Of a stretch of DNA of 64,000 nucleotides, positions 3 through 36,467 are shown one piece after another. Origin of the DNA: an uncultured Planctomycetaceae bacterium (GTDB taxonomy: Bacteria > Planctomycetota > Planctomycetia > Isosphaerales > Isosphaeraceae). Location: assembly GCA_963833985.1 (NCBI GenBank), contig CAWIAD010000001.1:224001-288000 (forward strand). Reading direction: 5' to 3'. The notes beneath the pieces are model-generated. The model did not search any database. It was not told where the DNA came from and saw only the letters and a list, made by a program, of their open reading frames with translations. Positions within the stretch are counted from its first letter, which is position 1. Every line of letters starts with the position of its first letter. The translations under genes and the position numbers were made by a program.

Positions 3-1781
3 CCGCCCGACCCTGAGCGGACCTCGCGGGACGCACCCGGGGGCGATCACTGGGGCGGTTTTCCGGTGCGTGGAACCTATGCCCAGGGCGTTGCGTGGGT
101 CGCGCTGATCCTGGCCCGGAGCCTGCGCTATGCGCACGCCATGAAGACGTTCCACCGCGACGTCAAGCCCGGCAACGTCCTGCTGACGCTCGATCACGGG
201 CCGCAGCTGCTCGACTTCAACCTGGCGGAGTCTCCACACTCGGCCGGGCGGGCCGAATCGGCCATGCTCGGTGGAACGCTTCCTTACATGGCTCCGGAGC
301 AGATCGAAGCATTTCTCAATCCCGACCTCTGGAACAAGGTCGGCGCCCAGGCCGACATCTACTCGCTCGGACTTGTGATCCGGGAGCTGCTCACTGGCCA
401 GGCACCCGACCTGCCGGACGAGAAACTTCCAGCTCCCCGAGCCATGAGCGATCTGCTGGAACGGCGAACCCGCCTGGTGACCGATGTCGGCCAGTTCAAT
501 CCCTCCGTTCCCCATGCACTCCGTGCCATCGTCGAGCGCGCGCTCTGCTTCAACTGCCAGGATCGGTACCCCGACGCACAGTCTCTTGCCGAGGACCTGG
601 ACGCCTTCCTGGCTCGACGTCCCCTGCGGCTGGCTGTCAACCCGTCGCGGCGCGAGCGCCTGGTGAACGGGATCAGGCGGAATCGCGTCCGGATCGTCGC
701 CTCCAGTGGTTACCTGGTACTGGCCGGTGTCATCGGCGTGCTCTGGCTCGGTCCCATGCTCAAGCCTGACCCGGCGTCCCTGCCCGCGTTTCGACAGGCA
801 GTGTGGGAGATCGACCAGGGCCGCCCGGAGCGCGCCATCGATCCGCTTCGCACCCTGGTCAAGGACTACCCCGATCATCCGCTGCCGCGGTTCGAGCTGG
901 CGATTGCCCAGGGCAAGTCGCGCCGTGTGCACCGGGATGATGCCCAGATTTCCATGGACGAGGCACTCAGCCTGCCGGACGCCGAGCGGAGTCTTCTGGT
1001 GTGGGGGCGCACCAATCCTTCCCTGGCAAGACAGCTTCAGGACTTCGTCGCCTCCCGGATGGAACTCCTCGTGCGTCTCAAGACCCTGACGCAGCCGGCG
1101 ACCGAGGGTTCCGGAGCCAGCCACCCGCGGCAGGACGCGGCACCGGTCCTCCGCCAGTACTATGAGACCATGCACCGGGCGCTGGAGCTTGCCCTGAACA
1201 TCGACCCAACCCTGAACACGATCCGCGTTCAGGCGGCTATCGTGGACGAATTCTTCGGCAAGTTCGAGTCGGCATACGCCCGGCTGACCAGGCTCATCGA
1301 TGAGAAGAAAGCCCAGGGTGACCAGATTGGCCGTAACGATCGCGATCAGCAGATCGACTGGATCGTCCGCCGTAGCCGGATTGCGGTACTCTGGGCAGCG
1401 GAACTGCACCACGAACCAGGTGCCGCGAACGCCGCCAGGGCGGAAAAACTGCTCCAGCAAGCGGCAGCCGCACTGGCCTCGTGCGAACGGGACATCCCCA
1501 GCCTGACGCTCCGTCCCGACAAGAAGCGGGACCTGAACGAGAGGATCTATCGCTACTTCTGGATTTGCACCGAAACCTGGCTGGCGATCGGCGAGGCGGA
1601 AAGACCGGGCAACGACCCCACCCAGCGCCGGCAAGCGTTTCACAACTCCAAGCGATACCTCGACTCCCTGATGGCCTTCGGAGTCCAGAACTCGCTGGGG
1701 GAAGGTCTCTCCGACGAGATCGAGGCGCTGAAGCAGAGGACCCGCGCAGGCATCCAGGCCGGCTCGAAGTTTCTCGACTAG
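3..1781 (+). CDS. Ser/Thr protein kinase with TM segment and TPR-like C-terminus (5' end outside window)
   Basis: HRDVKPGN, DFNLA, GGTLPYMAPEQ and DIYSLG kinase motifs; hydrophobic GYLVLAGVIGVLWLG; frame is open back to the window start. Confidence 0.9.
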   Translation, partial: PPDPERTSRDAPGGDHWGGFPVRGTYAQGVAWVALILARSLRYAHAMKTFHRDVKPGNVLLTLDHGPQLLDFNLAESPHSAGRAESAMLGGTLPYMAPEQIEAFLNPDLWNKVGAQADIYSLGLVIRELLTGQAPDLPDEKLPAPRAMSDLLERRTRLVTDVGQFNPSVPHALRAIVERALCFNCQDRYPDAQSLAEDLDAFLARRPLRLAVNPSRRERLVNGIRRNRVRIVASSGYLVLAGVIGVLWLGPMLKPDPASLPAFRQAVWEIDQGRPERAIDPLRTLVKDYPDHPLPRFELAIAQGKSRRVHRDDAQISMDEALSLPDAERSLLVWGRTNPSLARQLQDFVASRMELLVRLKTLTQPATEGSGASHPRQDAAPVLRQYYETMHRALELALNIDPTLNTIRVQAAIVDEFFGKFESAYARLTRLIDEKKAQGDQIGRNDRDQQIDWIVRRSRIAVLWAAELHHEPGAANAARAEKLLQQAAAALASCERDIPSLTLRPDKKRDLNERIYRYFWICTETWLAIGEAERPGNDPTQRRQAFHNSKRYLDSLMAFGVQNSLGEGLSDEIEALKQRTRAGIQAGSKFLD

Positions 1782-22222: not shown

Positions 22223-23743
22223 TCAGTGCATTCGCACGACCTTCAGGGAGCCGCCGTGGGTCGGCGGCAGCAACTGGTTTTTCGGTTTCCAGTTCATGAG
22301 CAGGTGATCGACCGCCTGGAGGGTCGAGAGCGTCGAACCCGGATGAGCGGCCAGCAGGTGTCTCGGCGAGCTCAAGGTGCCGGATGGTAGGATCGTTGGG
22401 ATGGTCCGGGCATAGCTTGTCGTGGTGACCAGTGTGGTCGTGGCACCCGCTGGCTGTGCCTGCGACTGCGTGGGCGCGGCCATGGCGAGGTTCGGCGAGA
22501 GGGCTCCCCCTCCATTCGATCCACTGCCACCATTCAAGATTGTTGCGTCGAGCACGTTGCCAACGGCGGTGAGGTTGCCGATGGTGACAATCTGGACGGG
22601 AGCGCTTGCTCCGCCCCCGCCCTGATCAGGCTGCTGGGCCACGACCGTGTTCGGCGGGGCGATGGGCGGCTGGTAGACCGAGCCGAAATTGAGCTCGAGC
22701 CCGAATCCTCCGGTTGACGAGCCCAGGCCCGTCCCGTTGGCGCGAATGAAATAGCTCTGCCCGGGCGCCACTCCGGCGATCGAGACCGAGGCCGTCCCGC
22801 CGAATGCCGTTGACGTCGCCGTGGCGAGGGGCTTCAACCCGGACGTGTAGACGTAGACAACCGGGCTGAGGCTGCTCAGGTTGCTGGACTGCACCGTGGC
22901 AACCATTGTGCCGCTGGTGGAGCTGGGGACCGTAACCTTGAACCACTCGGCCTGGCTGCCGGAGGTGATATCCAGGCTTGGAATTGCCACCTGTCCATTA
23001 CTATCGATGTAGCTGTTCAGGTTCGTCGCTTTGGCATAGTTGCTGTTCGACAGGCCGTTACTGTTGAACTGATCGTACTGCGAGGCGCCCCAGACAGATT
23101 GGATGCCCGCGACGTCGTCGCTGGTGAGCGACTGCTTCATGCCGTTGTAATAGGCGTACATGCAGGCCGTGGTGATCTGCGATTCGCCCAGACCCAGCGC
23201 GTGGCCGAACTCGTGGATGGCCACGGTCTCCAGGTCGTAATTGCTGTTGATCTGCCAGGTCACGTTCGGGTTGGTGTTCAGGAACATATCACCGGCGTCG
23301 GTGCCGCCGTTGTAGGGCGGAGGCAGGAAGGTCTCGCCCAGTGCACCGGTACCAAGGTTCACTCCGCCGATGCGGATATCGCCGAACCGCGGGTCGTCTT
23401 GCTGGTTGCCGTTGCACGCTTCCGGACTGCCATTGTCGGAGACCAGAGCCAGGTTGATGTTCGCGACCGCTTCCCATACGGAGGCGGCCTTCTCGATGGC
23501 CCCCTGCCAGGCGGCCGTCGAGAACTTGGCGTTCATCGTGGAATTGAGGTTGCTGGGAGTGCCGCCGATGGAGGTTCCATCGGGCATGAAGCTGTAGGTG
23601 ATCCGGCTGCCGAAGACGAAATGACCGCCATACGCGGAATAAAGCAGGAGACGGTCCTCCAGACCTTCCAGTAAGGGACGCGTGGATCGCTTCGGGGATC
23701 GCTCGCCGGACCTTGATTTCGACGGACGTAAGTGAAAGAGCAT
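22223..23743 (-). CDS. Matrixin (M10)-like metalloprotease with planctomycete N-terminal motif and PPC-like domain
   Basis: LEGLEDRLLL; ITYSF; GDIRIG; DLETVAIHEFGHALGLGES; Met-turn ACMYAYY; LTSDDVAGIQ. Confidence 0.85.
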   Translation of the reverse strand: MLFHLRPSKSRSGERSPKRSTRPLLEGLEDRLLLYSAYGGHFVFGSRITYSFMPDGTSIGGTPSNLNSTMNAKFSTAAWQGAIEKAASVWEAVANINLALVSDNGSPEACNGNQQDDPRFGDIRIGGVNLGTGALGETFLPPPYNGGTDAGDMFLNTNPNVTWQINSNYDLETVAIHEFGHALGLGESQITTACMYAYYNGMKQSLTSDDVAGIQSVWGASQYDQFNSNGLSNSNYAKATNLNSYIDSNGQVAIPSLDITSGSQAEWFKVTVPSSTSGTMVATVQSSNLSSLSPVVYVYTSGLKPLATATSTAFGGTASVSIAGVAPGQSYFIRANGTGLGSSTGGFGLELNFGSVYQPPIAPPNTVVAQQPDQGGGGASAPVQIVTIGNLTAVGNVLDATILNGGSGSNGGGALSPNLAMAAPTQSQAQPAGATTTLVTTTSYARTIPTILPSGTLSSPRHLLAAHPGSTLSTLQAVDHLLMNWKPKNQLLPPTHGGSLKVVRMH

Positions 23744-23976: not shown

Positions 23977-25716
23977 GGGTGTAAGACACGGTTCGTTTTT
24001 CTGAGGTCCTACGCCGCTTTCCCAGTTTCCCTGGCTTTATAGTTGCGGAAGGGGCTGCTGGGCCTCTCTTTGAGGTACCGATCCAGGCGTCCGTCCTCCG
24101 AGAGGAACGACGCTCGAAGCTGAAGCATCGTCTCGGCACCGGCGTCGCTCCAGAATTTCTCCGACCCCTTGACCCGCCGGTTGAAGATCTTCACGGTCGA
24201 CTCCACGTGACTGCTCGTCCACGGCAATCCCCCGCGTCGATAAGCAGGGTAGTCCATCCGCTCTCGATTATGCTCCAGGTAGCCGAGTTCTTGGGCGATG
24301 ATCTTGCGCGGGTCATCGTCGGCCAGCCGTTCGAGCTCGTCTCCGGATAAGGACGCCTGGGCATCTCGCAGGGTACGGAGTTCCTCGATCACCTGGCCCA
24401 CGCGTCCCTTCCAGCAGGCCTCTGCCCATGCCTGGAACAACTCCCAGCGGCCTTCGGTCTCGACCGCCGCAGCCTTGGCGGCCGCGAACAGGTGACCCAG
24501 GGCGTGGAGAAAATCAACGATGGCCAGAAAGGTCGGAAAATGCCGTTGCTGCAATTTCCAGATCCAGGCCGAGCCGTCCCCCAGGAACGCCCGATGAGCC
24601 GCTTTCATGAGATTGCGTCGCCACGCCTCCGCGGCCACCATCGGCCCGAATTGCTCGCTGGAGCAGGTGCTCGCCACGTAAGTCCGCACCACCAGTTCGG
24701 GCCTTTCCCTCGGCTCGGACCGATCCCCGGGGGACGGCAGAGATGCTTCGTCGATGTTCTCCGCCGGGGCCTCCTGTAGGCCCATCGAGCTCGCCCCGCT
24801 GATCCCGCCGACAAGCTTCTCGACGTATCCCCGGTCGCGGTAGCAGGCGGGCAACTCCGGCTCCGGGTCGCAGTCCGAGACGACATTGGCCATGGTGGCC
24901 AGAATCGCGATCTTGTCCTCACGCCAGGACGCATCATGGGCACCGGGCCCTTCCCCCTGGCCGCGAATCTGCAGCCGGCCGCCGTCAACCTCGACCACTG
25001 CCAGAGCCGGCCGTGTCTCGACTCGCGGCTCGAGCTTATGGGCTTGAAGTTCGCTCACATGCTGATCTCTCTCGGCCTGCAATTGTTGGCCGACCTCCTG
25101 GGCGATGCGGCCGATCTGCCGACTGCCGATGGTCACCTCGGCCAATTCCGCCATCGCCTCGGCCGCCTCCCGGAAGGAGGGCTCCCGGGCACCGCAACGG
25201 ACGATCTTGCGCAGCACCGAAGGGCTGTAGTCATGTGGCGTGAGGCGCAAGGCCGGACGCTGAGGGAAAAAAATCCCGGCGACATGCCGGGCAGTGGCAC
25301 TTCGGTTCGGCGTAGGTGACCTTGCCTCCCCAGAATTCAATGGTTCGATCGTTGCGTTGCACCGGACAGAGCCGCTTGCAGTTGGGACAAGGCTGCTCGG
25401 CCCCCAAGAGGGAGGCTTTCTGCTTCAGGAGTTCCTCGATGGTTCCCTTGGCCACGGCACAGGCCGCGGTCATGGCCATTTGTTCCATGTCGTCGGCATC
25501 GAGGTCCAGGTCAGGCCCAACTTCTTCGTGGACCCGTCGCGCCACAGTTTTCCCCCACCCTTTGGCCATCTGCTCGACCCCGGTGCGATCCATCGATGGT
25601 GACTTACGGAAAGGCATAGCAGGTCCCTCCTTGGACTTCCGGTGACGGACAATTTGGGAAACTTGACTTGACATGCTACCACCGGCCTCGGGCGGCGCGA
25701 ACCGCGTCTTACACCC
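23977..25716 (-). mobile_element. Complete ISKra4-family insertion sequence (1740 bp)
   Basis: Terminal IRs GGGTGTAAGACACGGTTCG / GGGTGTAAGACGCGGTTCG; 9-bp target duplication AAGAAGGCA (23968-23976 and 25717-25725). Confidence 0.9.
24009..25617 (-). CDS. ISKra4-family transposase, orfA/orfB joined by a frameshift at T7-C3 (about 25264-25273)
   Basis: orfA CPNC...CPACRRDFFP; orfB EVDGG, LGDGSAWIW, IVDFLHA, RMDYPAYR, SSHVES; RBS AAGGAGG. Confidence 0.85.
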
Positions 25717-25842: not shown

Positions 25843-26928
25843 ATGGATACGCACCCTGCCCCCAAGCCAGATTCCCCGATCGCCACGACGACCGTGACTG
25901 AAGCCAGATCCGACGCCGACCGAAGCCCGCAGCTCGGCGCGTTGCCGCAACCCCGATACTCCATCGCCGCGGTCTCGAAGCTGACCGGAATCAGTTGCCA
26001 TACCCTGCGGGTCTGGGAACGGCGCTACGGATTTCCCGTTCCCGAGCGGTCGGCGTCAGGCCACCGTCGTTACGACGGCGCGCAGGTGCAGACACTCTGC
26101 CGCATCTCCGAGTTGAACCGGTCCAGCCGGCAATCGATCGGCGAGCTGATCTCCCGCGTCGGCGGCGAGGAAGCGAAGACGGAAGAGCTCGCCGTGCCCG
26201 GCGCGGCGTCGGCCGAGGAGGCGGCCCGCAGCCGCCTGGTCGGCAAGCTGATCCTGGGAGACTATTTGGAAGCGGAGCGTGAATATGCCGGACTCACCAC
26301 CCGCCTGGATCCCTGGGGCATCGTCAACCACGTGATTCATCCGGTTCTGATCGAAGCCGGTGAAGGATGGTTTCGAAAGTGCCATTCGGTCTTCCAGGAG
26401 CGGCTCATCACGGTATTCATGAGACAGAAGCTGGTCTTGATGATCCAGGCCGCCCGCGAGGCGAATCTCCAGCCCACGCGGAGCGTGATCGCGGGAACCG
26501 TGCAGGGAGACCGTCACGAGGGCGGGGTCCTGATGTTCAACCTGGTGATGGAGATGCGCGGCTGGAGGGTGTACAACCTTGGAGTGGATGTTCCCGTGCG
26601 CGAATACGGCCTGGCCATCGAGCGGCTACGCCCGTCCGCACTGGCGCTCTCGTTCGTGCTCTCGCGGAACATCAAGAAGCGATTCCAGGAGTTGCAGCAG
26701 ATTCAGGCTGTTCCCGTCTTCGTCGGCGGCCGGAGTATCGTGAACTATCAATCCATGGCACGAAGCCATGGACTGATCCCGCTTGTCGGGCCGATCCTGA
26801 AGTCGACCGACCAGCTTGAAGCAGGATTTGGCCGCTGGTCCCTCCGCCGCGGTGCGGACAGCGAAGCACCGGAGACCGTCACCCAACAAGAAAGGCGACC
26901 TGCTTCGCCGGGAAGCAGCTCGCCTTGA
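25843..26928 (+). CDS. MerR HTH plus B12-binding domain regulator (CarH/LitR-like)
   Basis: YSIAAVSKLTG...TLRVWERRYG...SGHRRY; GDRHEGG (DxHxxG); LGVDVP; FVGG. Confidence 0.9.
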   Translation: MDTHPAPKPDSPIATTTVTEARSDADRSPQLGALPQPRYSIAAVSKLTGISCHTLRVWERRYGFPVPERSASGHRRYDGAQVQTLCRISELNRSSRQSIGELISRVGGEEAKTEELAVPGAASAEEAARSRLVGKLILGDYLEAEREYAGLTTRLDPWGIVNHVIHPVLIEAGEGWFRKCHSVFQERLITVFMRQKLVLMIQAAREANLQPTRSVIAGTVQGDRHEGGVLMFNLVMEMRGWRVYNLGVDVPVREYGLAIERLRPSALALSFVLSRNIKKRFQELQQIQAVPVFVGGRSIVNYQSMARSHGLIPLVGPILKSTDQLEAGFGRWSLRRGADSEAPETVTQQERRPASPGSSSP

Positions 26929-27001
26929 TGGGGAGGGGAGCCTGGCCTCGCGAGCAAACCGCGGAGGGCCAAGCTCGATTGACGCCTGCACGACCTCCGG
27001 A

Positions 27002-27778
27002 TCAGTGCTGAGGAGCAGCCTTGGCCGGAGCATAGGGTGCCGCGGACTGAGGAGCCGGGGCGACCTTGGCCGGGGCCATGGGTGCCGCGGACTGAGGAGC
27101 CGGGGCGACCTTGGCCGGAGCCTGGGGAGCCGGGGCGACCTTGGCCGGAGCCTGGGGAGCCGGGGCGACCTTGGCCGGAGCCTGGGGAGCCGGGGCGACC
27201 TTGGCCGGAGCGTAAGGAGCCGGCGCCATCTTGGCCGGAGCCTGGGGAGCCGGGGCGACCTTGGCCGGAGCGTAAGGAGCCGGGGCCATCTTGGCCGGAG
27301 CCTGGGGAGCCGGGGCGACCTTCGACGGCGCGTAAGGAGCAGCCGCCTGAGGAGCCGGGGCGACCTTCGAGGGCGCCTGGGGAGCCGGGGCGACCTTCGA
27401 GGGCGCCTGGGGAGCCGGGGCGACCTTCGACGGCGCGTAGGGAGCCGGCGCCATCTTGGCCGGAGCCTGAGGAGCCGGGGCGACCTTCGACGGCGCGTAG
27501 GGAGCCGGCGCCATCTTGGCCGGAGCCTGAGGAGCCGGGGCGATCTTCGAGGGCGCCTGGGGAGCCGGAGCGATCTTCGAGGGCGCCTGGGGAGCCGGGG
27601 CGACCTTGGAGGGCGCCTGAGGAGCCGGGGCGACCTTGGAGGGCGCCTGAGGGGCCGGGGCGACCTTGGCCGGAGCCTGAGGAGCCGGGGCGACCTTCGC
27701 CGGAGCCTGAGCCGCAGGATAAGCCTGAGGGCTCTGTCCTGGCAGGCTCAGGGCAAGAACTAGAACCGCACTGGTCAT
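27002..27778 (-). CDS. Secreted Pro/Ala-rich tandem-repeat protein, 258 aa, (AP[AS]K[VIM]APAP[QY])x21
   Basis: RBS GAGGA; short hydrophobic N-terminus MTSAVLVLALSLPG; repeat variation preserves the frame. Confidence 0.8.
   Translation of the reverse strand: MTSAVLVLALSLPGQSPQAYPAAQAPAKVAPAPQAPAKVAPAPQAPSKVAPAPQAPSKVAPAPQAPSKIAPAPQAPSKIAPAPQAPAKMAPAPYAPSKVAPAPQAPAKMAPAPYAPSKVAPAPQAPSKVAPAPQAPSKVAPAPQAAAPYAPSKVAPAPQAPAKMAPAPYAPAKVAPAPQAPAKMAPAPYAPAKVAPAPQAPAKVAPAPQAPAKVAPAPQAPAKVAPAPQSAAPMAPAKVAPAPQSAAPYAPAKAAPQH
27005..27706. repeat. 30-bp coding tandem repeat array with three 15-bp spacers
   Basis: Unit approximately GGAGCCGGGGCGACCTTGGCCGGAGCCTG(G/A). Confidence 0.95.
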
Positions 27779-28359
27779 CGCGATGTCCTCTGTGAAGAGT
27801 GAGGTTGTCGGTCGACGTCTCGATCGAGTCGGTAAGCTGACATTCCCCTGATGGCTCGGCACGGCCGATGCTGAACAACGTCCGATCGCCAACACCACCG
27901 TTCCTGTCGTCGTTCTCTGGCCCGACCCATCGAGGCCGGGGCAGGAATCTTGTCCCTTGTCCGCAAACGGGACAATCCACGAAGGCCTCGGTTCGGTGGC
28001 GGAGGCCTCAAGCCGGTCATCTTGGCCGACTCTCGCTCTCCACCCCAGGGGTGGCCAATGCTGGTTATCGGCATCCGACTTCGATCCGTTTACTGAACTT
28101 GAGAAATTCGATAAGCTGCCAGTCCGGGGAACTCTAGGGGCTATGACGAGTATCCAGAGATTGGGCGACCGCGCATGGTCAATTGGTATCGACCTTGGGC
28201 CTTCACGATGCCGAACCATCACAGGGCATTTGAGGAAGCGACGTCGATCCCATAGGATGGAGATTCCCAGTAGGTGTTGGGGACACGGGCGTCCCCTGTG
28301 AGACCTGGGAATCAAGAGTCATCGGCGTATGTAACTCAACACCGGTATTGGGAGGCAGC

Positions 28360-29917
28360 ATGCGTATTGGCATCCGGCTGGGTGGCTCACTGACATGGGC
28401 GCTCATTGCCGTCCTGGGAATGGCCGCCGGGGCTCAGGCCGCGGACCGCGTCATCATCCCTCTGGGTGGTGTGCTGGAAGATCAGTCCGGTGACCATCAT
28501 TTCGGTGTGTACGTCCCGACGCGGTTCGGCGGCGAGCTCACCGTGACGGCGACCGAGGGGCAGGTCGTCGAGCTCAAGGGGCCAAACGGACAGCAGCGGA
28601 CGAACGGTCAGGACGTTGGACTGGATCAGCACGGCTGGTACACGTTCAAGGTCGTGGGCGGCGCACAAGCCCTACAAGGTGGAAACCCGGTTCGTGCAGG
28701 CGGCACAGAGCCTGAAGAAACCCTGGAATTTCTACTACTGGCCCACCAAGGCGGACTCGATTCACGAGCCCTGGGCCGGCGGCAACGGCCGCGTGGACAT
28801 CGATTACACGATGCTCCGCGGCGACGATGAGTTGATCCGGGCGCCGGGGAGCTATATTCCGCCGGGTGAGGACATTGTCCGGGCCGGCCCCAACGGCTTG
28901 CTCGAATCGCTGCCGCCGGCCGGCGACGACGCCACGTGGTTCCCAAACCTTTACGACGACCTCACGTGGGTGGGCCCCAACAAGGAGAAAGGCGGCGAGG
29001 TCACGATCTTCCAGACGCCTTCCCCGTTGCTGAAGTATGACCAGATCTTCAACTCCCAGGCCCGCTGGTGGGAGTCGGTGAACAGTCAGAATAAGGAGAT
29101 CACCCGCTGGCCCGGCCACTGCCTGGGCGGAGCCGTGGCGTCGATCCTGCTGAACGAGCCGATCCCGGCCCCGGGAAGCGGCATGACGCGCGATGAGCTC
29201 AAGGCCCTCTGGGCCGAGCTCGGAGAGAACCACCTGAACCACCGCATCGGCGACTATGCCAACGAGATTCCCCCGGGCCCTCCCCGTCCCGGTCCCGATG
29301 AATGCGACTGGAAGGCGCCCCGCGTGCACGCCATGTTCGAGAGCCACATCCGCGGCGAGCGGAAGGCGCTGCTGGGCAACATGCGGGCGTTCCCTCCGCG
29401 TGGCACGATCACCGAGGTGTGGAACCAGGGAATCTACAAGTACGTCGCCGAGTACAAGGCCATCCCGCACCGCGGCCCCCGCGCCGTCAACATCAAGCTC
29501 GAGCTGCACACCAACTCGGGATCGATGCTCAACGGTCAGGACGACAAGGACCGCGTGATTTACTACGAGTACAACCTCGTTTACGGTCTCGACGGCAGGG
29601 TGGACGAGACCAACCCGGCCGCGGCGGACTGGGTCTCCGTGGGTGGCGAAGCACTCTTCGCCCCGCTCAACGTCCTGGAGCTCGTGGAGTCGCGCTGGCA
29701 AGGGCATAACCCCTACGTGACCGAAACCAACGTGCGGGCGCTCGACCTCGCCAACGGCGGCGGTGGCGGACGCCTGGCCGCCGTGGCCCCGCGGTTTCGT
29801 CCCGTCAAGGAGTACGAGGGGAATCGCTCCGTCTCCCCCACGATGTTCGCCTCTGGCAACTCGAACGGCGGACCTCGCCGCGGCTTCTTCGGCAGGTTCT
29901 TCGGACTTGGCCGCTAA
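28360..29917 (+). CDS. Secreted protein with transglutaminase-elicitor (GP42-like) domain (frameshift near 28660)
   Basis: Signal peptide ending AQA; PWNFYYWP, SPLLKYD, RWWE, WPGHCLG.A.AS, DELKAL, EVWNQ, YEYNL in the order typical of that family. Confidence 0.65.
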
Positions 29918-30319
29918 GCAGGAAACAGGACGTCTCCCAAGCCGCCCCGAGACCGAACGCCTCCCCTACCACATCGCCCGGCTCCGTCATCGGGTTATAC
30001 CGAACCGGAGCCGGGCGGTTTCGTTTCCGCGGCGGTCGCGCCGGTCCTCCCGGTCATCGCGATGGTCGCAGTCGGGCCGGATCTCGGAGTCGTGACACTG
30101 CCAGACCCGCACCGCTGGCGCCCGTCTTTTCGATTTCGTTATCCTCGGCACTGTTGTTCAAGTTTGCCGCGGCCGCTGGACGATCAAGTAAGCCGAGAGG
30201 GCCAGCAGTTCCAGAGCATGCGGCGCCGGCCCTTTCGCGAAGGCCGGACGCGCGGCCCCGCAGGCCCCTGGTCGGGTCGCAACTTGAGCATAGGGCGGTG
30301 GAACGAGCGAGGTGCAGCC

Positions 30320-30865
30320 ATGACATCGAGCGAAGCTCTTCCGACGGTCGTTCTGCCCCTGGAGACCCCCATCCTGGGGGGTCATCGTGGGCTGGTGATG
30401 CACGGGCTGCCGGTCCTGATCCTTGTTCCTCATGTGCGCCCGCAACCGGGCAGAAGGCCAATCGCCCCGCGCCGGACCCGACAGTCGCCAGCGCCCGGTC
30501 GATCGCGCCGGGCACGCCGGCGGCTCCGCCGGCCGGTCCGTATCGCGGCGTATGCACTCGTGGCCTTACTGGCGATGGTGCTGGTGGGCAGAGAGTGCGG
30601 ACCATCGCGGATCCCGCTCCATCCCGGATCGCGGCTGCTCTCGCTGCCGCCCCGCCTGGCGGCGCTCAGCTCGCCTGCCCAGGCGGACGCCAGCGACTGG
30701 CCTGCCGCGGAGGCCCGGCCCGTGCCTGGGTCGCCTTCCCCGGTGATGCTCTGGGTCGAGCCCCTGGGGTCGGCCGTCGATTCTGACACCCCTGCCCCGG
30801 TCGTGTTTCCGGGCTACCTGCTGCCCGACGATCGTCACGAGGAGCCGGTCCATGAGGGAAGTTGA
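30320..30865 (+). CDS. Hypothetical membrane-anchored protein
   Basis: GAGGT RBS; Arg-rich stretch then TM IAAYALVALLAMVLV; overlaps the next gene. Confidence 0.55.
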   Translation: MTSSEALPTVVLPLETPILGGHRGLVMHGLPVLILVPHVRPQPGRRPIAPRRTRQSPAPGRSRRARRRLRRPVRIAAYALVALLAMVLVGRECGPSRIPLHPGSRLLSLPPRLAALSSPAQADASDWPAAEARPVPGSPSPVMLWVEPLGSAVDSDTPAPVVFPGYLLPDDRHEEPVHEGS

Positions 30866-31661
30866 TGAAGCCCTGACGCATGCCTACGCCCAGCGCAGCG
30901 CCGCCAGCCCCGCGCAGTCCGTGCCTCCCTCGCCGCACTGGTTGGGCCGCACCGCAGGACCGCACAAGCCGCCGGGAATGATTGCTCAGCCCGCTCTGCC
31001 GGGCCGGACGGCCGAAACGGACCCGGAGGCAGCAAGCGTACTGGCCTGGCCAGGCATTGTCCTGGTTCTCGAGCAGCGCTGGGGCCAGCGCTTCGAGGAG
31101 ATGGCGGAACGGCTGCTGGAAGCGCGCGACCGGCAGCACCTGAAGGCGCTGCTGTTCACGAGTTGCCATCGGTCGGAAGGACGCACCACGCTGGTTCTGA
31201 CTCTCGCCCGCGCCCTGGCCCGCCGTCCTTTCCGCACCGTCATCGTCGATGCCGACCTTACCGGTCCCATGCTCGCGCACGCGCTGGGAGTCAGGACCGA
31301 GGTCGGGCTGGAAGACGTGGTGATGGACGGGCAGGCGCTCGCCGACGCGCTCATCCATGCGGTCGACGACCACCTCTGGCTCTTGCCCATGCGCACGGCC
31401 GCGGCAAGCCCTCGCGAGCTGCTGTCCAGCCCGGGCTGGTCCTGCACGATGGCCAGGCTGCGCCGGGAGTTCGACCTGGTGCTGCTGGACGGCAGCCCGC
31501 TCTTTACCGGTCTGAGCGCCGCGGTCCTGCACCGCTCGGTGGACGCCGCGGTGCTCGTCCACCATCGCGGTATGACCGGCGAGCGCGCCCTGGTGCGCGC
31601 GCGAGAGGTTCTCGATGCCGGTGGGATTCCCCTGCTTGGACTCGCCGAGACCTTTGTGTGA
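30852..31661 (+). CDS. CpsD/CapB (BY-kinase-like) P-loop protein
   Basis: LFTSCHRSEGRTT; IVDADL; FDLVLLDGSP. Confidence 0.8.
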   Translation: MREVDEALTHAYAQRSAASPAQSVPPSPHWLGRTAGPHKPPGMIAQPALPGRTAETDPEAASVLAWPGIVLVLEQRWGQRFEEMAERLLEARDRQHLKALLFTSCHRSEGRTTLVLTLARALARRPFRTVIVDADLTGPMLAHALGVRTEVGLEDVVMDGQALADALIHAVDDHLWLLPMRTAAASPRELLSSPGWSCTMARLRREFDLVLLDGSPLFTGLSAAVLHRSVDAAVLVHHRGMTGERALVRAREVLDAGGIPLLGLAETFV

Positions 31662-31701
31662 ACGGCGCGATCGGATGTTCGCGCAAAACCGTGGAGACGG
31701 T

Positions 31702-32502
31702 GTGTACGAGAACCACTTCGGCCTGCGGAGCCGGCCCTTCGACGAGACGACGAGCCCGGCGGCATGCATCGAGCTGCCCAGCCGCGCCGCCGTGCTCCGC
31801 CGGCTGTGCTACGGCCTCGAGCATCGCCGTTCTCCGGCCGTCCTGTTCGGCCCTTCCGGCTCGGGCAAGACGCTGATTGCCGGCGTGCTGGCGTCCCGGC
31901 TGGGCAGCCCCTCGGTTCACGTGACGTACCCCGCACTTCCCGCCGAGGAACTCCTGATCGTGCTGACCACCGAACTGTGCGGGCAGAGCCCGGAGCCGCG
32001 CTCGATGGCGACGGCCCTGAGTGAGCTGCGGGGCCGGCTGGCGTCGGCCGCCAAGGCCGGGCTGCACCCGCTGCTGATCGTGGACGAGGCCCAGCTCATC
32101 GCTGATCCGGCCTCCTTCGACGTGCTGCGGCTACTGCTGAACTTCTCCACTGCCGGGCCGCCCGACCTGAACTTACTCCTGGTCGGTACGGCCGAGATGC
32201 TGCCGCGCATTCCCCTGGCGCTCGCGGACCGCGTGACCGCCCGCTGCCTCCTGCTGCCCTTCACGCAAGAGGAATCCGCCGCGTACGTGGCCGGACGTCT
32301 CACCGCGGCCGGTGCGACGACGCCCCTCTTCTCGGCCGACGCCCTGGCCGGACTGCACCGTGCTGCCGACGGCCTGCCGCGCCGCCTGAACCATCTGGCC
32401 GACCTGGCGCTCTTGATCGCCTATGCCGAGGGACGAACCCAGGCAGAGGCCCACACGATCACCATCGCCGCCCGCGAGTTTCAGCTCGACGACGCGGCGT
32501 AG
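31702..32502 (+). CDS. ExeA/GspA-family AAA ATPase
   Basis: MYENHFGLRSRPF; GPSGSGKT; IVDEAQ; GLPRRLNHLADLAL. Confidence 0.88.
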   Translation: MYENHFGLRSRPFDETTSPAACIELPSRAAVLRRLCYGLEHRRSPAVLFGPSGSGKTLIAGVLASRLGSPSVHVTYPALPAEELLIVLTTELCGQSPEPRSMATALSELRGRLASAAKAGLHPLLIVDEAQLIADPASFDVLRLLLNFSTAGPPDLNLLLVGTAEMLPRIPLALADRVTARCLLLPFTQEESAAYVAGRLTAAGATTPLFSADALAGLHRAADGLPRRLNHLADLALLIAYAEGRTQAEAHTITIAAREFQLDDAA

Positions 32503-32579
32503 GGTTCAGCCAGGCGCTACGCATAAGTCAATGCCTGTGAAATAGCGATCAGTTGAGTGCATGCATAGGTTTGTTCCTC

Positions 32580-32928
32580 GTTCCCCACGCTCCGCGTGGG
32601 AACAAAGTTCTCACATATCTCATACCAAATTCTACATTAGTTAACGTTATATGTGTTTCCCTCGTTCCCACGCGGAGCGTGGGAATGCCGTCTGCGACGC
32701 TCGGCGTCGATTGGGCTCGTGCTGAGGCTGGGAAATCCGTGGGACGCAGAGCGTCCCGACCGGTGTTCCCACGCAGCACGCAGAGCGTGGGAACAAGTCT
32801 GTCGCAAACCGCTTGCCCCCCCCTTTCGTTAGTGCGGTTTTCACTTGGATCGCAGACTGAGACCGGGGGGCAGGCATTCCTGCCTGCCGGAGCAAGCCTG
32901 CCCTGGCAGACAAGAATGTCTGCCCCCC
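32580..32928. repeat. Cluster of REP-like palindromes from two families
   Basis: GTTCCCACGC...GCGTGGGAA(C/T) at 32580, 32664 and about 32766, with a GACGC..GCGTC partner; inverted pair GGGGGGCAGGCATTCCTGCCTGCC (32865) and GGCAGACAAGAATGTCTGCCCCCC (32905). Confidence 0.8.
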
Positions 32929-33069
32929 TTTCCAAAACTCAGAAGCTGCCTGCAACCGTCAGAAAACCGCCATAATGCTAGTTAAACGGTATTGACATAA
33001 TCACAATTTGACGGCAGGAACAAATCTCGCGAGCGCGTCAAGGAGAGTGGACGCGCTCGCGGGACGTTC

Positions 33070-34758
33070 TCACGGGCTCGTTCGGGGCCTGGAGTCGGAG
33101 ACAATCTTGCCCAGCATGGTCTGCTCGAAGCCCTTCAGGTCGGTCCAGAGGGTTCCCGGGCCAGCATAGAAAATGCCAAGCTTCAGATCAGAAGGCAGCC
33201 CCTGCGCGAAGACGTAACGCTCATACGCGTCCGCTCCGCCCAGGGCCTTGACCAGCAACTGGAAGCGCTGGGCCCTGGCTTCCTGCGACAGCTTGACCGA
33301 CTTCGCTCTGGCCTCGCCCAGCAGCCGCGTGGTCTGCGCCTCGATGGCGGCGGTCTTGGCGTCGATCTCGGCCTTCAGCTTCTCGGTCGTGGCCTCGATC
33401 TCCTTGGCCTTCTTCTCGCCCTCGGCGGTCGCACCGGCGACGAGCTTGCCGGTTTCGGCCTGCGTCCGCTTCTCCTCGAAGACCACTTTGGCCTTGGCCT
33501 CGGTCAGGTTAGCCTGTGCCTTGGCGGTCAATTGCTCCTGGTCGCGCATCTTGGTCAGCTCGTCGGCGATCTTGGCTTTCTGGATCGGCTCGCGCACGGC
33601 CTTGGGCACGTAAATGTGCCGCGTCAGACCGAAAAGCAGCGAGAGGTGCTTGGCGGTGAGCACGCGCTCCAGTTCCGCGGCGGACTCGTTCTGAAACTCC
33701 TCGCGGGTCTCGCCCACCAGCAAATCCACCGCGCCGCGGCGTGATCCATGCAGCCGGCAGATGGATTCGATTTGCGGCTGCACCACCTTCTGCTCGACAT
33801 CCTTCAGCGTGCCGAACTGGCGGACCACCTCGGGTGCCTGCTCGGGGAGGATTCCCCAGATGGCGGTGTAATCCATGTGGATGGGAAAACCGTCGCTGGA
33901 GGGGAACTCGATCCCCTTGCCCGCAACATAGGCCGGATCATCGGCCGTTGTCGTTCCAAGGCGATCGGCCTGGCGGCTGGCCGAGGTGACGCCCGCTCTC
34001 GGGCTGGTGCCCGTGCCGGCTTGCGGTCCGCCCTCGGCCTCCACCGTCAGACTGCTCTCGGCGTAGCCCACGCTGATGATGTTGATGCGCTTCTCCTCGG
34101 GATTGAGGAAGTAGATTCCCGGCTGGAGCACGCGCGGCTGGATGCCCCGCCCTTCCCCGGTGCGCGGGTCGCTGGCCTTGTTCGTGACCACACCGACGTA
34201 GCCCGGGGGGATGAGGGTGGGATCCTCGGCACGCCGCTTCGCCTGCGTGCCGGTCTCGGCGCAGGCGTCAACGTCGGCGATCTTGACGTCGAAGGCATAC
34301 TTGTTGATGCGGTATCGGCCCGGCGTGAGTACCTTGCGGAGGATGCCGCGATAGCCCGGCTCGTCGACGAGGTAAGTTCCTTCGGGCAGTGGCTTGCCGA
34401 TCTTGGAGACCACCACTCCGATCTTGCCGGGCGGGATCACGTCGTCCTTGACGATCTGGGTCTCGAATTCCAGCGGCGAGTAGAAGTGGCGGCCACTGCC
34501 GGGCATGGCTTCGAGGATGCCCACCTGAAGCGGCCGGCCGGCGGCATCCGTCTGGACCAGGATCCCCTGGGGGGCCTGGGCCGTCGAGCCGAACGGCCAG
34601 GGCCCCTTGTAGCGGACCAGCAGGCTCGACCCCGCCGGGACCTCGATGCGGCAGATCGTCCACTTCCAGAGACCGAAGTAGGCGGCCTGCGACAGGACCA
34701 CGATGGCCAGCACGGCGCCGGCAATTCGATTCAGGTTGCGGATCTGGAACAGGTTCAC
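33070..34758 (-). CDS. SPFH/band-7 (flotillin-like) membrane protein
   Basis: N-terminal TM; repeated G.....L.PG.Y..NP; FPSSDGFPI; AEA-rich coiled coil. Confidence 0.85.
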   Translation of the reverse strand: MNLFQIRNLNRIAGAVLAIVVLSQAAYFGLWKWTICRIEVPAGSSLLVRYKGPWPFGSTAQAPQGILVQTDAAGRPLQVGILEAMPGSGRHFYSPLEFETQIVKDDVIPPGKIGVVVSKIGKPLPEGTYLVDEPGYRGILRKVLTPGRYRINKYAFDVKIADVDACAETGTQAKRRAEDPTLIPPGYVGVVTNKASDPRTGEGRGIQPRVLQPGIYFLNPEEKRINIISVGYAESSLTVEAEGGPQAGTGTSPRAGVTSASRQADRLGTTTADDPAYVAGKGIEFPSSDGFPIHMDYTAIWGILPEQAPEVVRQFGTLKDVEQKVVQPQIESICRLHGSRRGAVDLLVGETREEFQNESAAELERVLTAKHLSLLFGLTRHIYVPKAVREPIQKAKIADELTKMRDQEQLTAKAQANLTEAKAKVVFEEKRTQAETGKLVAGATAEGEKKAKEIEATTEKLKAEIDAKTAAIEAQTTRLLGEARAKSVKLSQEARAQRFQLLVKALGGADAYERYVFAQGLPSDLKLGIFYAGPGTLWTDLKGFEQTMLGKIVSDSRPRTSP

Positions 34759-36467
34759 TTGGGATTCTCCTCGGATGCGGTCACCGGCAGCGGATCAATC
34801 ACCCTGGCGGCGTCCCGCGGGCGTGCGGCCTGTGAAACGGGACGCTCCGGGGCGTTGCCGGCGGAGCTAGACGTGGAATCGACCCGGGAGGCCCGGCTGG
34901 CTTCCGGCAAGGTGCGGGTCGGACCGCTGTGCCGGGTGAACTCGCTGAAGAGCTCCATGAGCGGCCCCTCGGAATTCCCCAGGATCGTGTGGAACGATGG
35001 GGCAAGCTTGCTCAACAGCAGGTTTCTTGCCATCGCCGCGCCGTCGCCTCCGTAAGCGGCCACCTGCGCGGTCAGGCCGGCCGCCTCGGCGGCATTGTCA
35101 TACCGCACCACGTCGGCCTCGGCCTCGGCCTTGGCCAGGATCGCGGCGACCTTGTCACGGGCTGCCTCGAGCTGCGTCTGCGCGACCTTCAGCTTCTGCT
35201 CCGAAAGGGTGACAGCCACTTGCTGCTCCTGCTGCGCCCGGGTCGTCTTCTCGACCACCTCCTGGCCGGCCTCCACCACCAGCTTCTTCTGATCGGCCAG
35301 CACCACCTCCACTTTCAGCTTCGCCTCGGAGACCTGCTGGAGCTGCTCGCGGCGATACTGGGCCAGCTTCTGCTTGGCCACCTCGCGCTGCTGCACCGGC
35401 TGGGCAATCTCTGGGGGCGGCTGGATCGAGGTGATGGCCACGGCCAGGATCTCGATTCCCTGCTTCTGGCAGTTCTGGGTCAGGCTCTTCACCAGGTCGG
35501 TCTGGAATTTCTCGCGGTCCTGGCCGCTGATGAACTGCCCGCCCATGAGCTTCGACCCACCCACGCGGCACAGCGAGCGGCTCTCCGGCGTGATGATCTT
35601 GGCGATGATCTCCTCGTCGATCGTGTCGCCGTTCGCGTCCTCGTTGTATTTCACAAACATCTCGGAGACCTTATCGGGCGCGATCCGGAACTCGACCACG
35701 CCGTCGAGCGTGATCGGGAAGCCGTCGGCCGAGAGGAAGCTCATCTCTCCCTCGAGACCCAGGTTGAACCGGCGCGAGCGGCAGTCCACCATGCTCACCC
35801 GGGTCTCATAGGGATTGAGGTAATACATTCCCGGTTCGAGCGTCCGCTTCTGCACACCGCGCTCGCCTTCCTCGACCAGGAAGACGTTCGGGTTCCTGGG
35901 CGGCGTACCGGCCAGCAGCGTGACCACGCCGCGAAATCCGGCCGCGATGGTCACCGGGTCGTGCAGCTCGATCGCCTCGGCGTAAGGGTTGTAAGGGTAT
36001 CGGCCCGGCTTGAGGACCTCGCGGAGGATCCCCTTCTCACCGGGCTCGGCGAGGATTTGCCCGGCGGGAAGCTCCTCTCCGGCCAGCGCAATCCGGATGC
36101 CGATCTTGTCGCCGGGGACCACGAACTGCGGGCTGATCTCCCACGACCAGTAATACGGGTTGAAAAAGTAACGGCCCTCGGTGAGCACGCCGTTGTTTGG
36201 TCCGCCGGCCTGGACCCCCTTGTAGTAGTGGCCGTCCCTGGGCGGTGGGGCCAGCTCCATGTCGGGCAGCAGCTCCAGCCCCTCGCGGCGGATCAGCACC
36301 GCCTGGTGGCCGGTGCCGACGTCGATCTTGCACGCATTGTAAGCGGTCAAAACCAGCCCCAGTCCCAGGGCGAGCAGGCCCCCGAAGACCATCGCACCCC
36401 GTGATCCGCCCCGTCCCGGCGGCCTGCGCCCGGCCTGCCTCGGGCGATCCTCGTCGAACGCGTCCAT
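34755..36467 (-). CDS. SPFH/band-7 (flotillin-like) membrane protein
   Basis: N-terminal TM; LTEGRYFFNPY, LKPGRYPYNPY, LEPGMYYLNPY; FLSADGFPI; AEAEA coiled coil; 4-bp overlap with its partner. Confidence 0.85.
   Translation of the reverse strand: MDAFDEDRPRQAGRRPPGRGGSRGAMVFGGLLALGLGLVLTAYNACKIDVGTGHQAVLIRREGLELLPDMELAPPPRDGHYYKGVQAGGPNNGVLTEGRYFFNPYYWSWEISPQFVVPGDKIGIRIALAGEELPAGQILAEPGEKGILREVLKPGRYPYNPYAEAIELHDPVTIAAGFRGVVTLLAGTPPRNPNVFLVEEGERGVQKRTLEPGMYYLNPYETRVSMVDCRSRRFNLGLEGEMSFLSADGFPITLDGVVEFRIAPDKVSEMFVKYNEDANGDTIDEEIIAKIITPESRSLCRVGGSKLMGGQFISGQDREKFQTDLVKSLTQNCQKQGIEILAVAITSIQPPPEIAQPVQQREVAKQKLAQYRREQLQQVSEAKLKVEVVLADQKKLVVEAGQEVVEKTTRAQQEQQVAVTLSEQKLKVAQTQLEAARDKVAAILAKAEAEADVVRYDNAAEAAGLTAQVAAYGGDGAAMARNLLLSKLAPSFHTILGNSEGPLMELFSEFTRHSGPTRTLPEASRASRVDSTSSSAGNAPERPVSQAARPRDAARVIDPLPVTASEENPK

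Follow-up and report, generated by a model that had tools for sequence, protein, structure and literature searches.

The DNA analysed here, a stretch of 64,000 nucleotides from an uncultured Planctomycetaceae bacterium of the Isosphaeraceae (GCA_963833985.1, contig CAWIAD010000001.1, positions 224,001 to 288,000; hereafter the window), carries two divergent genes, one for a Pro/Ala/Lys/Gln repeat protein and one for a cysteine enzyme whose predicted fold is that of GP42, the transglutaminase of Phytophthora sojae. We propose, with a probability of about 50%, that the enzyme is a transglutaminase that joins chains of the repeat protein into an exported covalent mesh. This proposal, drawn from sequence comparison and structural modelling, is made because the repeats keep the two residues that a transglutaminase joins, and do so beside an enzyme for which the one close match among solved folds is a transglutaminase.

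The structure predicted for an intact ortholog from a 130-row alignment (predicted local distance difference test, pLDDT, 87.6; predicted template modelling score, pTM, 0.85) was compared with 48,161 chains. GP42 (3tw5) was the only chain at Z of at least 8, with a Z of 17.2, a root-mean-square deviation (rmsd) of 3.3 and 254 aligned residues, and the next match had a Z of 6.8. Foldseek likewise returned GP42 as the sole match under an E of 0.001 (E 3.5e-5). A sequence search of the PDB with the family profile gave nothing significant, so that GP42 was reached only by fold comparison and by chained profiles: the enzyme-family profile matched a set of 14 planctomycete proteins found with Pfam PF16683 (TGase_elicitor) at 97.4% probability (E 9e-12), one of these proteins aligns with 3tw5 at E 1e-44, and the family profile recovered one relative (P0211, E 6.7e-30) that itself clears the PF16683 cut-off. 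The N-terminal 84 residues form a separate beta-sandwich in the model, with weak likeness to collagenase PPC/collagen-binding and PliG sandwiches (Z 4.3–4.6, rmsd 1.8–2.2). The named relatives are Isosphaeraceae hypothetical proteins with no Pfam domain, including Aquisphaera giovannonii OJF2_14670. In the wider family (390 clusters), the catalytic domain occurs as a C-terminal fusion with Ig-like, FG-GAP, dockerin, EF-hand and other modules.

The residues that would make up an active site are strongly conserved. The Cys, the His preceding it, the Asn of VWN and both Glu of ELGE are invariant in all 130 orthologs, and the Cys, within W-x-G-x-C, starts the helix at residues 225–235 of the model, as in the GP42 family. 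In a chained alignment read by eye, an invariant Glu appears to fall at the position of the helix acid of GP42 (Asp328), which pairs with the His there. The VWN Asn is kept in 98 of 107 members of a wider set, and we infer that it is the Asn meant in a published review. As described in the cited part of that review, the His of GP42 comes directly after the Cys (the CH motif) and interacts with an Asn or with a helix Asp (PMC10318531). The earlier note on this DNA had flagged the reversed order of His and Cys as a caveat. The difference from GP42 is real, and its weight is lessened by how usual the order is among bacterial relatives: His precedes Cys in 13 of the 14 planctomycete proteins that score with PF16683, in 7/7 intermediate proteins and, more widely, in 84 of 90 relatives. 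Because it is so common in the bacterial relatives checked, we read His-before-Cys as a bacterial form of the site, not as decay. We also considered the residue following VWN, which is His in 98/130 orthologs and Gln in 32/130, as a catalytic base. It was set aside, since on a quick tree of 76 of the 80 loci, read by eye, His and Gln appear to have been swapped in several separate places, which makes this His an unlikely base.

With respect to the candidate substrate, a recount agreed with the earlier description of a 258-residue open reading frame (ORF) with 21 units of AP[AS]K[VIM]APAP[QY], 17 of them ending in Gln and 4 in Tyr. Its product contains 22 Lys and 21 Gln and is devoid of Asp, Glu and Arg. 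When the 21 units are compared, 8 of 10 third-codon-position columns vary and none of the 10 second-position columns does, and we therefore take the minus-strand ORF to be the coding frame. A GAGG ribosome site lies ahead of its ATG, and the array has the top Tandem Repeats Finder scores of the whole window (378–534). The repeat protein is likely to be exported, with the reservation that a basic N-region is missing from its leader.

Lys and Gln are specifically retained in the repeats, in a Q-A-P-x-K pattern. A start was found in 71 repeat orthologs; 5 of these showed signs of frameshifts and were set aside, and the remaining 66 (9,141 residues) contain 885 Lys, 789 Gln, 19 Asn, 6 Asp, 3 Arg and 2 Glu; by comparison, other Pro/Ala-rich windows of the same genome (n = 63) have 1.5% Lys, 3.1% Arg, 2.5% Gln and 3.4% Glu. 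These counts overstate independence, because the units are copies of one another, the genomes are kin, and the repeat detector demanded Lys and barred Arg within one 30-residue window. Among 353 distinct 13-mers centred on Lys, the consensus is Gln at −4 (52%), Ala (81%), Pro (86%), any residue, Lys, a hydrophobic residue, any residue and Pro (93%), and Gln recurs at +6 in 64% despite drifting spacers. Unit length and unit number vary freely among orthologs; the two residues stay near 1:1 per chain, and the Gln/Lys ratio falls below 0.5 in just 2/66. Tyr and Cys are local extras: at least three Tyr occur in 8/66 orthologs, and for Cys the figure is 6/66. The idea in the earlier note that the Tyr-ending units might permit dityrosine links was accordingly ruled out as a general feature. 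In some lineages the repeats are loaded with Cys, for instance in C-P-P-P-S-K-Q units, and disulfide links would be possible there.

A second Q/K repeat protein is encoded in the same genome on another contig (C2), unlinked to the pair. It has a clear signal peptide and units of the form A-A-Q-A-P-A-A-P-x-K-S-Y-P, which follow the same Gln and Lys logic, and 18 of 24 genomes of the family gave matches to it, partly as cross-hits to the first repeat gene. Adjoining it is one or more Val/Thr/Gln-rich repeat proteins with VPYTV/VPVTT units, split over two frames, for which neither Pfam nor NCBIfam gave a match. These resemble the YTV wall proteins of planctomycetes.

The two genes of the window are almost always found together. 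The enzyme is present in 84 of 86 Isosphaeraceae genomes and 39 of 40 genera, in 0/16 genomes from other families of the class, and phylum-wide only as distant relatives in 5/400 genomes (E below 1e-6). From 80 named loci, 4 were too short, leaving 76 evaluable; 2 hits of the repeat detector were false, and a repeat gene stands head-to-head with the enzyme in 68. Counted by genome, 77 of the 84 enzyme-bearing genomes were read and 2 offered only truncated contigs; the pair is present in 74 of the remaining 75, and the exception is 87% complete with its main locus not found. A different type of repeat could hide in at most one evaluable genome. The head-to-head layout described in the earlier note, with a gap of about 580 bp (measured here at 581 bp), therefore extends across the family. 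The loci at which the enzyme is unpaired are mostly second copies. We dropped co-loss as evidence: at the thresholds applied, the neighbours of the enzyme are likewise missing from the genomes that lack it, and block loss or an assembly gap would therefore explain the absence. Within the conserved block, the enzyme/repeat pair is the tightest link.

In the mechanism that we favour, the predicted GP42-fold cysteine enzyme would join one copy of the repeat protein to another through their Gln and Lys side chains. A thioester would form between the Cys and the Gln of Q-A-P-x-K, with the His before the Cys acting as base, and a Lys of another chain would resolve it. An extended Pro/Ala scaffold would offer a donor and an acceptor about once every ten residues, and the N-terminal beta-sandwich possibly binds the substrate. 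Two promoter-like GCCGA boxes would place both genes under shared control, and the unlinked Q/K repeat protein of contig C2 may serve as another substrate. Both proteins would be exported, the mesh then sitting in the envelope or in the extracellular matrix.

The observations gathered in this paragraph and the next weigh against such a mesh. To begin with, the ORF in the window scored 10.5 bits (E 0.25) against PF16683, under the 25-bit gathering cut-off; five intact relatives scored at most 10 bits, and a PF16683 search of the genome gave no match. As the enzyme falls below the Pfam cut-off and lacks the CH motif, we do not file it as a TGase_elicitor member, and the GP42-like transglutaminase named in the earlier note stands as a predicted fold without standing as a formal family assignment. 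In addition, the residue after the Cys, His in GP42, is Leu in 130/130 orthologs; numerous unrelated surface proteins of the wider family carry the catalytic domain as a fusion; and papain-fold enzymes also comprise proteases, deamidases and amidases, according to the cited part of the review (PMC10318531). An alternative is other acyl chemistry, in which the enzyme would cleave or deamidate the repeat protein, or couple its Gln or Lys to another molecule (polyamines, peptidoglycan diamino acids or other Gln-rich surface proteins), so that the repeat protein would be a tether or a processed substrate rather than a self-polymer. The altered active site, the domain fusions, the Gln/Val/Thr-rich proteins adjoining the second repeat gene and the lower-ranked fold matches, to proteases that include IdeS and SpeB, would all suit this account. 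We nevertheless consider it rather unlikely, given that Lys and Gln are near 1:1 in one chain and that any protease lies 10 Z units under GP42.

Other points concern the linkage itself. Synteny is generally strong here, and linkage alone is thus no proof of an enzyme–substrate relation: genes resembling a polysaccharide-type tyrosine autokinase and an ExeA-type ATPase, both below family cut-offs, lie downstream of the enzyme within 4 kb at 47/55 and 46/55 loci, respectively, and are nearly as conserved. Extra enzyme copies with no repeat gene occur at 8/76 named loci, with 12 further second copies among other loci, and the unpaired copies retain the enzyme-side promoter motif (8/8). The second repeat protein persists in one genome, 99% complete, that has no detectable enzyme, and no convincing K/Q repeat was found within about 1.5 kb of 21 loci of distant relatives. 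It is conceivable that the genes merely belong to a co-regulated envelope block, with the enzyme acting on other targets and the repeat protein working non-covalently, for example as a polycation on an acidic polysaccharide. This, too, seems to us an account with a low probability: for a plain polycation Arg could serve, being three times as common as Lys across the proteins of this genome, and Gln at a fixed spacing would not be needed. Stapling within a chain, from Gln to the Lys four residues on, to give a poly-lactam or, once cut, cyclic peptides like repeat-core ribosomal peptides, is very unlikely, since the facts that fit it (Gln at −4 as the commonest spacing, a metalloprotease gene near 21/43 loci, and a short uncharged leader that is no textbook signal peptide) stand against the lack of any dedicated exporter or leader peptidase seen at the locus, the free variation in unit length and number, and the Pro-rich units, which would point to an extended chain.

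Returning to the covalent mesh, its nature is also constrained by the literature on planctomycete walls. The wall of Isosphaera pallida is reported, in the cited part of the source, to contain neither proline nor cysteine (PMC3072084). For this reason, a capsule, matrix or periplasmic mesh is a more likely product than the classic wall resistant to sodium dodecyl sulfate (SDS).

Table 1. Features of the enzyme/repeat pair, its surroundings and the second repeat locus (window coordinates unless a contig locus is given).
Feature	Position	Strand	Remarks
Matrixin (M10) metalloprotease gene	22223..23743	-	
Probable transposase region	24009..25674		separates the matrixin and CarH-like genes in this window
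CarH-like MerR/B12-binding regulator gene	25843..26928	+	
Pro/Ala/Lys/Gln repeat protein gene, candidate substrate	27002..27778	-	258 aa; orthologs found
21 decapeptide units AP[AS]K[VIM]APAP[QY]	27047..27706	-	with three short spacers
Repeat protein leader, residues 1–14	27737..27778	-	short, uncharged, hydrophobic; kind kept across genera
Conserved RNA leader of repeat gene	27779..28057	-	~280 nt; predicted structured; compensatory changes
Promoter-like TAAA-N16-GCCGATAA before repeat gene	28065..28092	-	
Promoter-like ATC[CG]A-N17-GCCGAAC before enzyme gene	28188..28216	+	
GP42-fold (predicted) cysteine enzyme gene	28360..29917	+	interrupted by one extra base; most intact relatives encode 513–525 aa
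Sec-type signal peptide ending AQA	28360..28440	+	read by eye
N-terminal beta-sandwich of enzyme	28441..28700	+	weak likeness to collagenase PPC/collagen-binding and PliG domains
One extra base compared with intact orthologs	28656..28662	+	comparison with 8 relatives
WPGHC motif	29108..29122	+	His 29117; Cys 29120, predicted nucleophile
ELGENH helix end	29216..29233	+	two invariant Glu; second inferred at the Asp328 position of GP42
EVWNQG	29414..29431	+	Asn invariant
Tyrosine-autokinase-like (polysaccharide type) and ExeA-type ATPase genes	30852..32502	+	below family cut-offs
Two adjoining ~565-aa ORFs	33070..36467	-	SPFH/flotillin-looking by eye
Second Q/K repeat protein	L041:7936-8742	+	contig C2
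Val/Thr/Gln-rich repeat protein(s)	L041:8953-10696	-	adjoins second repeat gene

The signal peptide of the enzyme and all four motifs listed in the earlier note were located, including WNFYYWP at 28724 and SPLLKYD at 29021, besides those in Table 1. The frameshift that it placed near 28660 was confirmed as an extra base, while its weight as a caveat is reduced, for it fits the error rate of the assembly. As a control, 181 ORFs of a near-complete relative gave 91 clear orthologs, 16 of which mapped to more than one frame; removal of three (two paralog cross-hits and one repeat protein) left 13/91 frameshifted. Given this rate, an assembly error is probably the cause of the break, and a very recent loss of the gene is a less likely one. 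In the 360 codons past the break, comparison with three relatives gave 128–158 synonymous and 23–29 non-synonymous codon differences, similar to the 102 and 23 between two intact control genes. No sequencing runs of this strain were found, the best share being 0.08. About one gene in seven looks frameshifted in this assembly, and its broken genes need caution. In NCBIfam, the enzyme and the two repeat proteins matched no family apart from a low-complexity hit to FtsK. Contigs from RNA libraries of relatives, for the most part 80–95% alike, span the enzyme gene and also the 5' end of the repeat gene in 3 runs from 2 studies and barely cover the neighbouring 30000–33000; these runs were picked using the target stretch and their contigs are uninformative on expression level, so we give them little weight.

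The region between the two genes is itself conserved. A GCCGA box lies just before the RNA leader on the repeat side at 59 of 68 paired loci, a GCCGAA on the enzyme side at 63 of 77 loci, and each has an upstream element at a fixed distance. The repeat-side motif resembles the sigma-28 consensus, TAAA-N15/16-GCCGATAA. The genome encodes a FliA/WhiG-type sigma factor above cut-off, and a flagellin search of it (96% complete) gave no match; a genome scan for the sigma-28-like motif gave 11 strict hits with no clear regulon. The consensus structure of the leader, built from 21 sequences, has 52 pairs with two-sided changes at 25, above all 500 shuffles, the structure being derived from the same alignment on which it was scored. 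Rfam gave no match over 26900–30400, and we regard the leader as a candidate for an undescribed cis-regulatory or mRNA-stabilising RNA. A more elaborate form of the proposal can be sketched from these elements, namely a layer like the cornified envelope, in which the His-before-Cys enzyme would polymerise at least two exported Q-A-P-x-K proteins, with disulfides in the Cys-rich lineages, a sigma-28-like programme in a genome without flagellin, and the undescribed structured mRNA leader. Taken as a whole, we hold this version to be tentative and doubtful.

On the far side of the repeat gene, a CarH-like gene is found at 24/43 loci and a matrixin gene at 21/43; both are present in this window, as are two flotillin-like ORFs beyond the kinase-like and ExeA-like genes (Table 1).

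With this pair come an enzyme and a ten-residue candidate substrate, and hosts are in culture (Aquisphaera, Paludisphaera, Singulisphaera, Tautonia and Tundrisphaera are among the named records), so that the activity of the His-before-Cys branch is open to direct test. Were the proposal true, it would provide a transglutaminase with a short defined tag, and a covalent layer of protein would enter the biology of the planctomycete envelope, a field in which an SDS-resistant protein wall was long reported (in the cited part of PMC3422733) and later questioned, once peptidoglycan had been found (in the cited part of PMC4432640). In the literature searched, from which subscription papers were largely absent, we found no description of the enzyme/repeat pair, no natural substrate reported for any bacterial GP42-like protein, no functional studies of bacterial PF16683-scoring proteins and no proteome from the Isosphaeraceae.

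Among known systems, GP42 itself (PDB 3TW5) is like the enzyme in predicted fold, W-x-G-x-C, VWN and a signal peptide, and putatively in the helix acid (by chained alignment). It differs in that identity is 19%, and in that the planctomycete enzyme has an extra N-terminal beta-sandwich and an inserted segment and is paired with a candidate substrate gene. The Gln–Lys transamidation of the GP42 type is Cys- and Ca2+-dependent. The PF16683-scoring proteins of Planctomycetota mostly share the His-Cys order and differ in having Asn after the Cys; they are patchy (14/301 genomes over cut-off), with no convincing K/Q repeat in the 1.5-kb flanks that were read. As a lead only, a Myxococcota cluster combines TGase_elicitor with PPC, the latter in 93% of members (feature score 0.88). 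Bacillus subtilis Tgl also acts on dedicated proteins of a protective layer (SafA/C30, GerQ and YeeK), and Bacillus transglutaminases of similar fold use pre-assembled coat substrates; Tgl differs in its NlpC/P60-type core and in working inside the mother cell on the spore coat (all from the cited part of PMC6490927). Nor are the Tgl substrates short tandem repeats encoded next to the enzyme gene. In the cornified envelope of animals, small proline-rich proteins (SPRRs) carry short Pro/Lys/Gln repeats that are used as transglutaminase substrates. They resemble the planctomycete protein in having tandem repeats that are rich in Pro and in which Lys and Gln are conserved, and some Isosphaeraceae repeats are Cys-rich as well; no homology is implied, and the animal transglutaminases belong to a different family from the GP42-fold enzyme. 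By analogy, the planctomycete pair probably works as GP42 does, as Bacillus Tgl does on coat proteins, and as the animal transglutaminases do on SPRRs.

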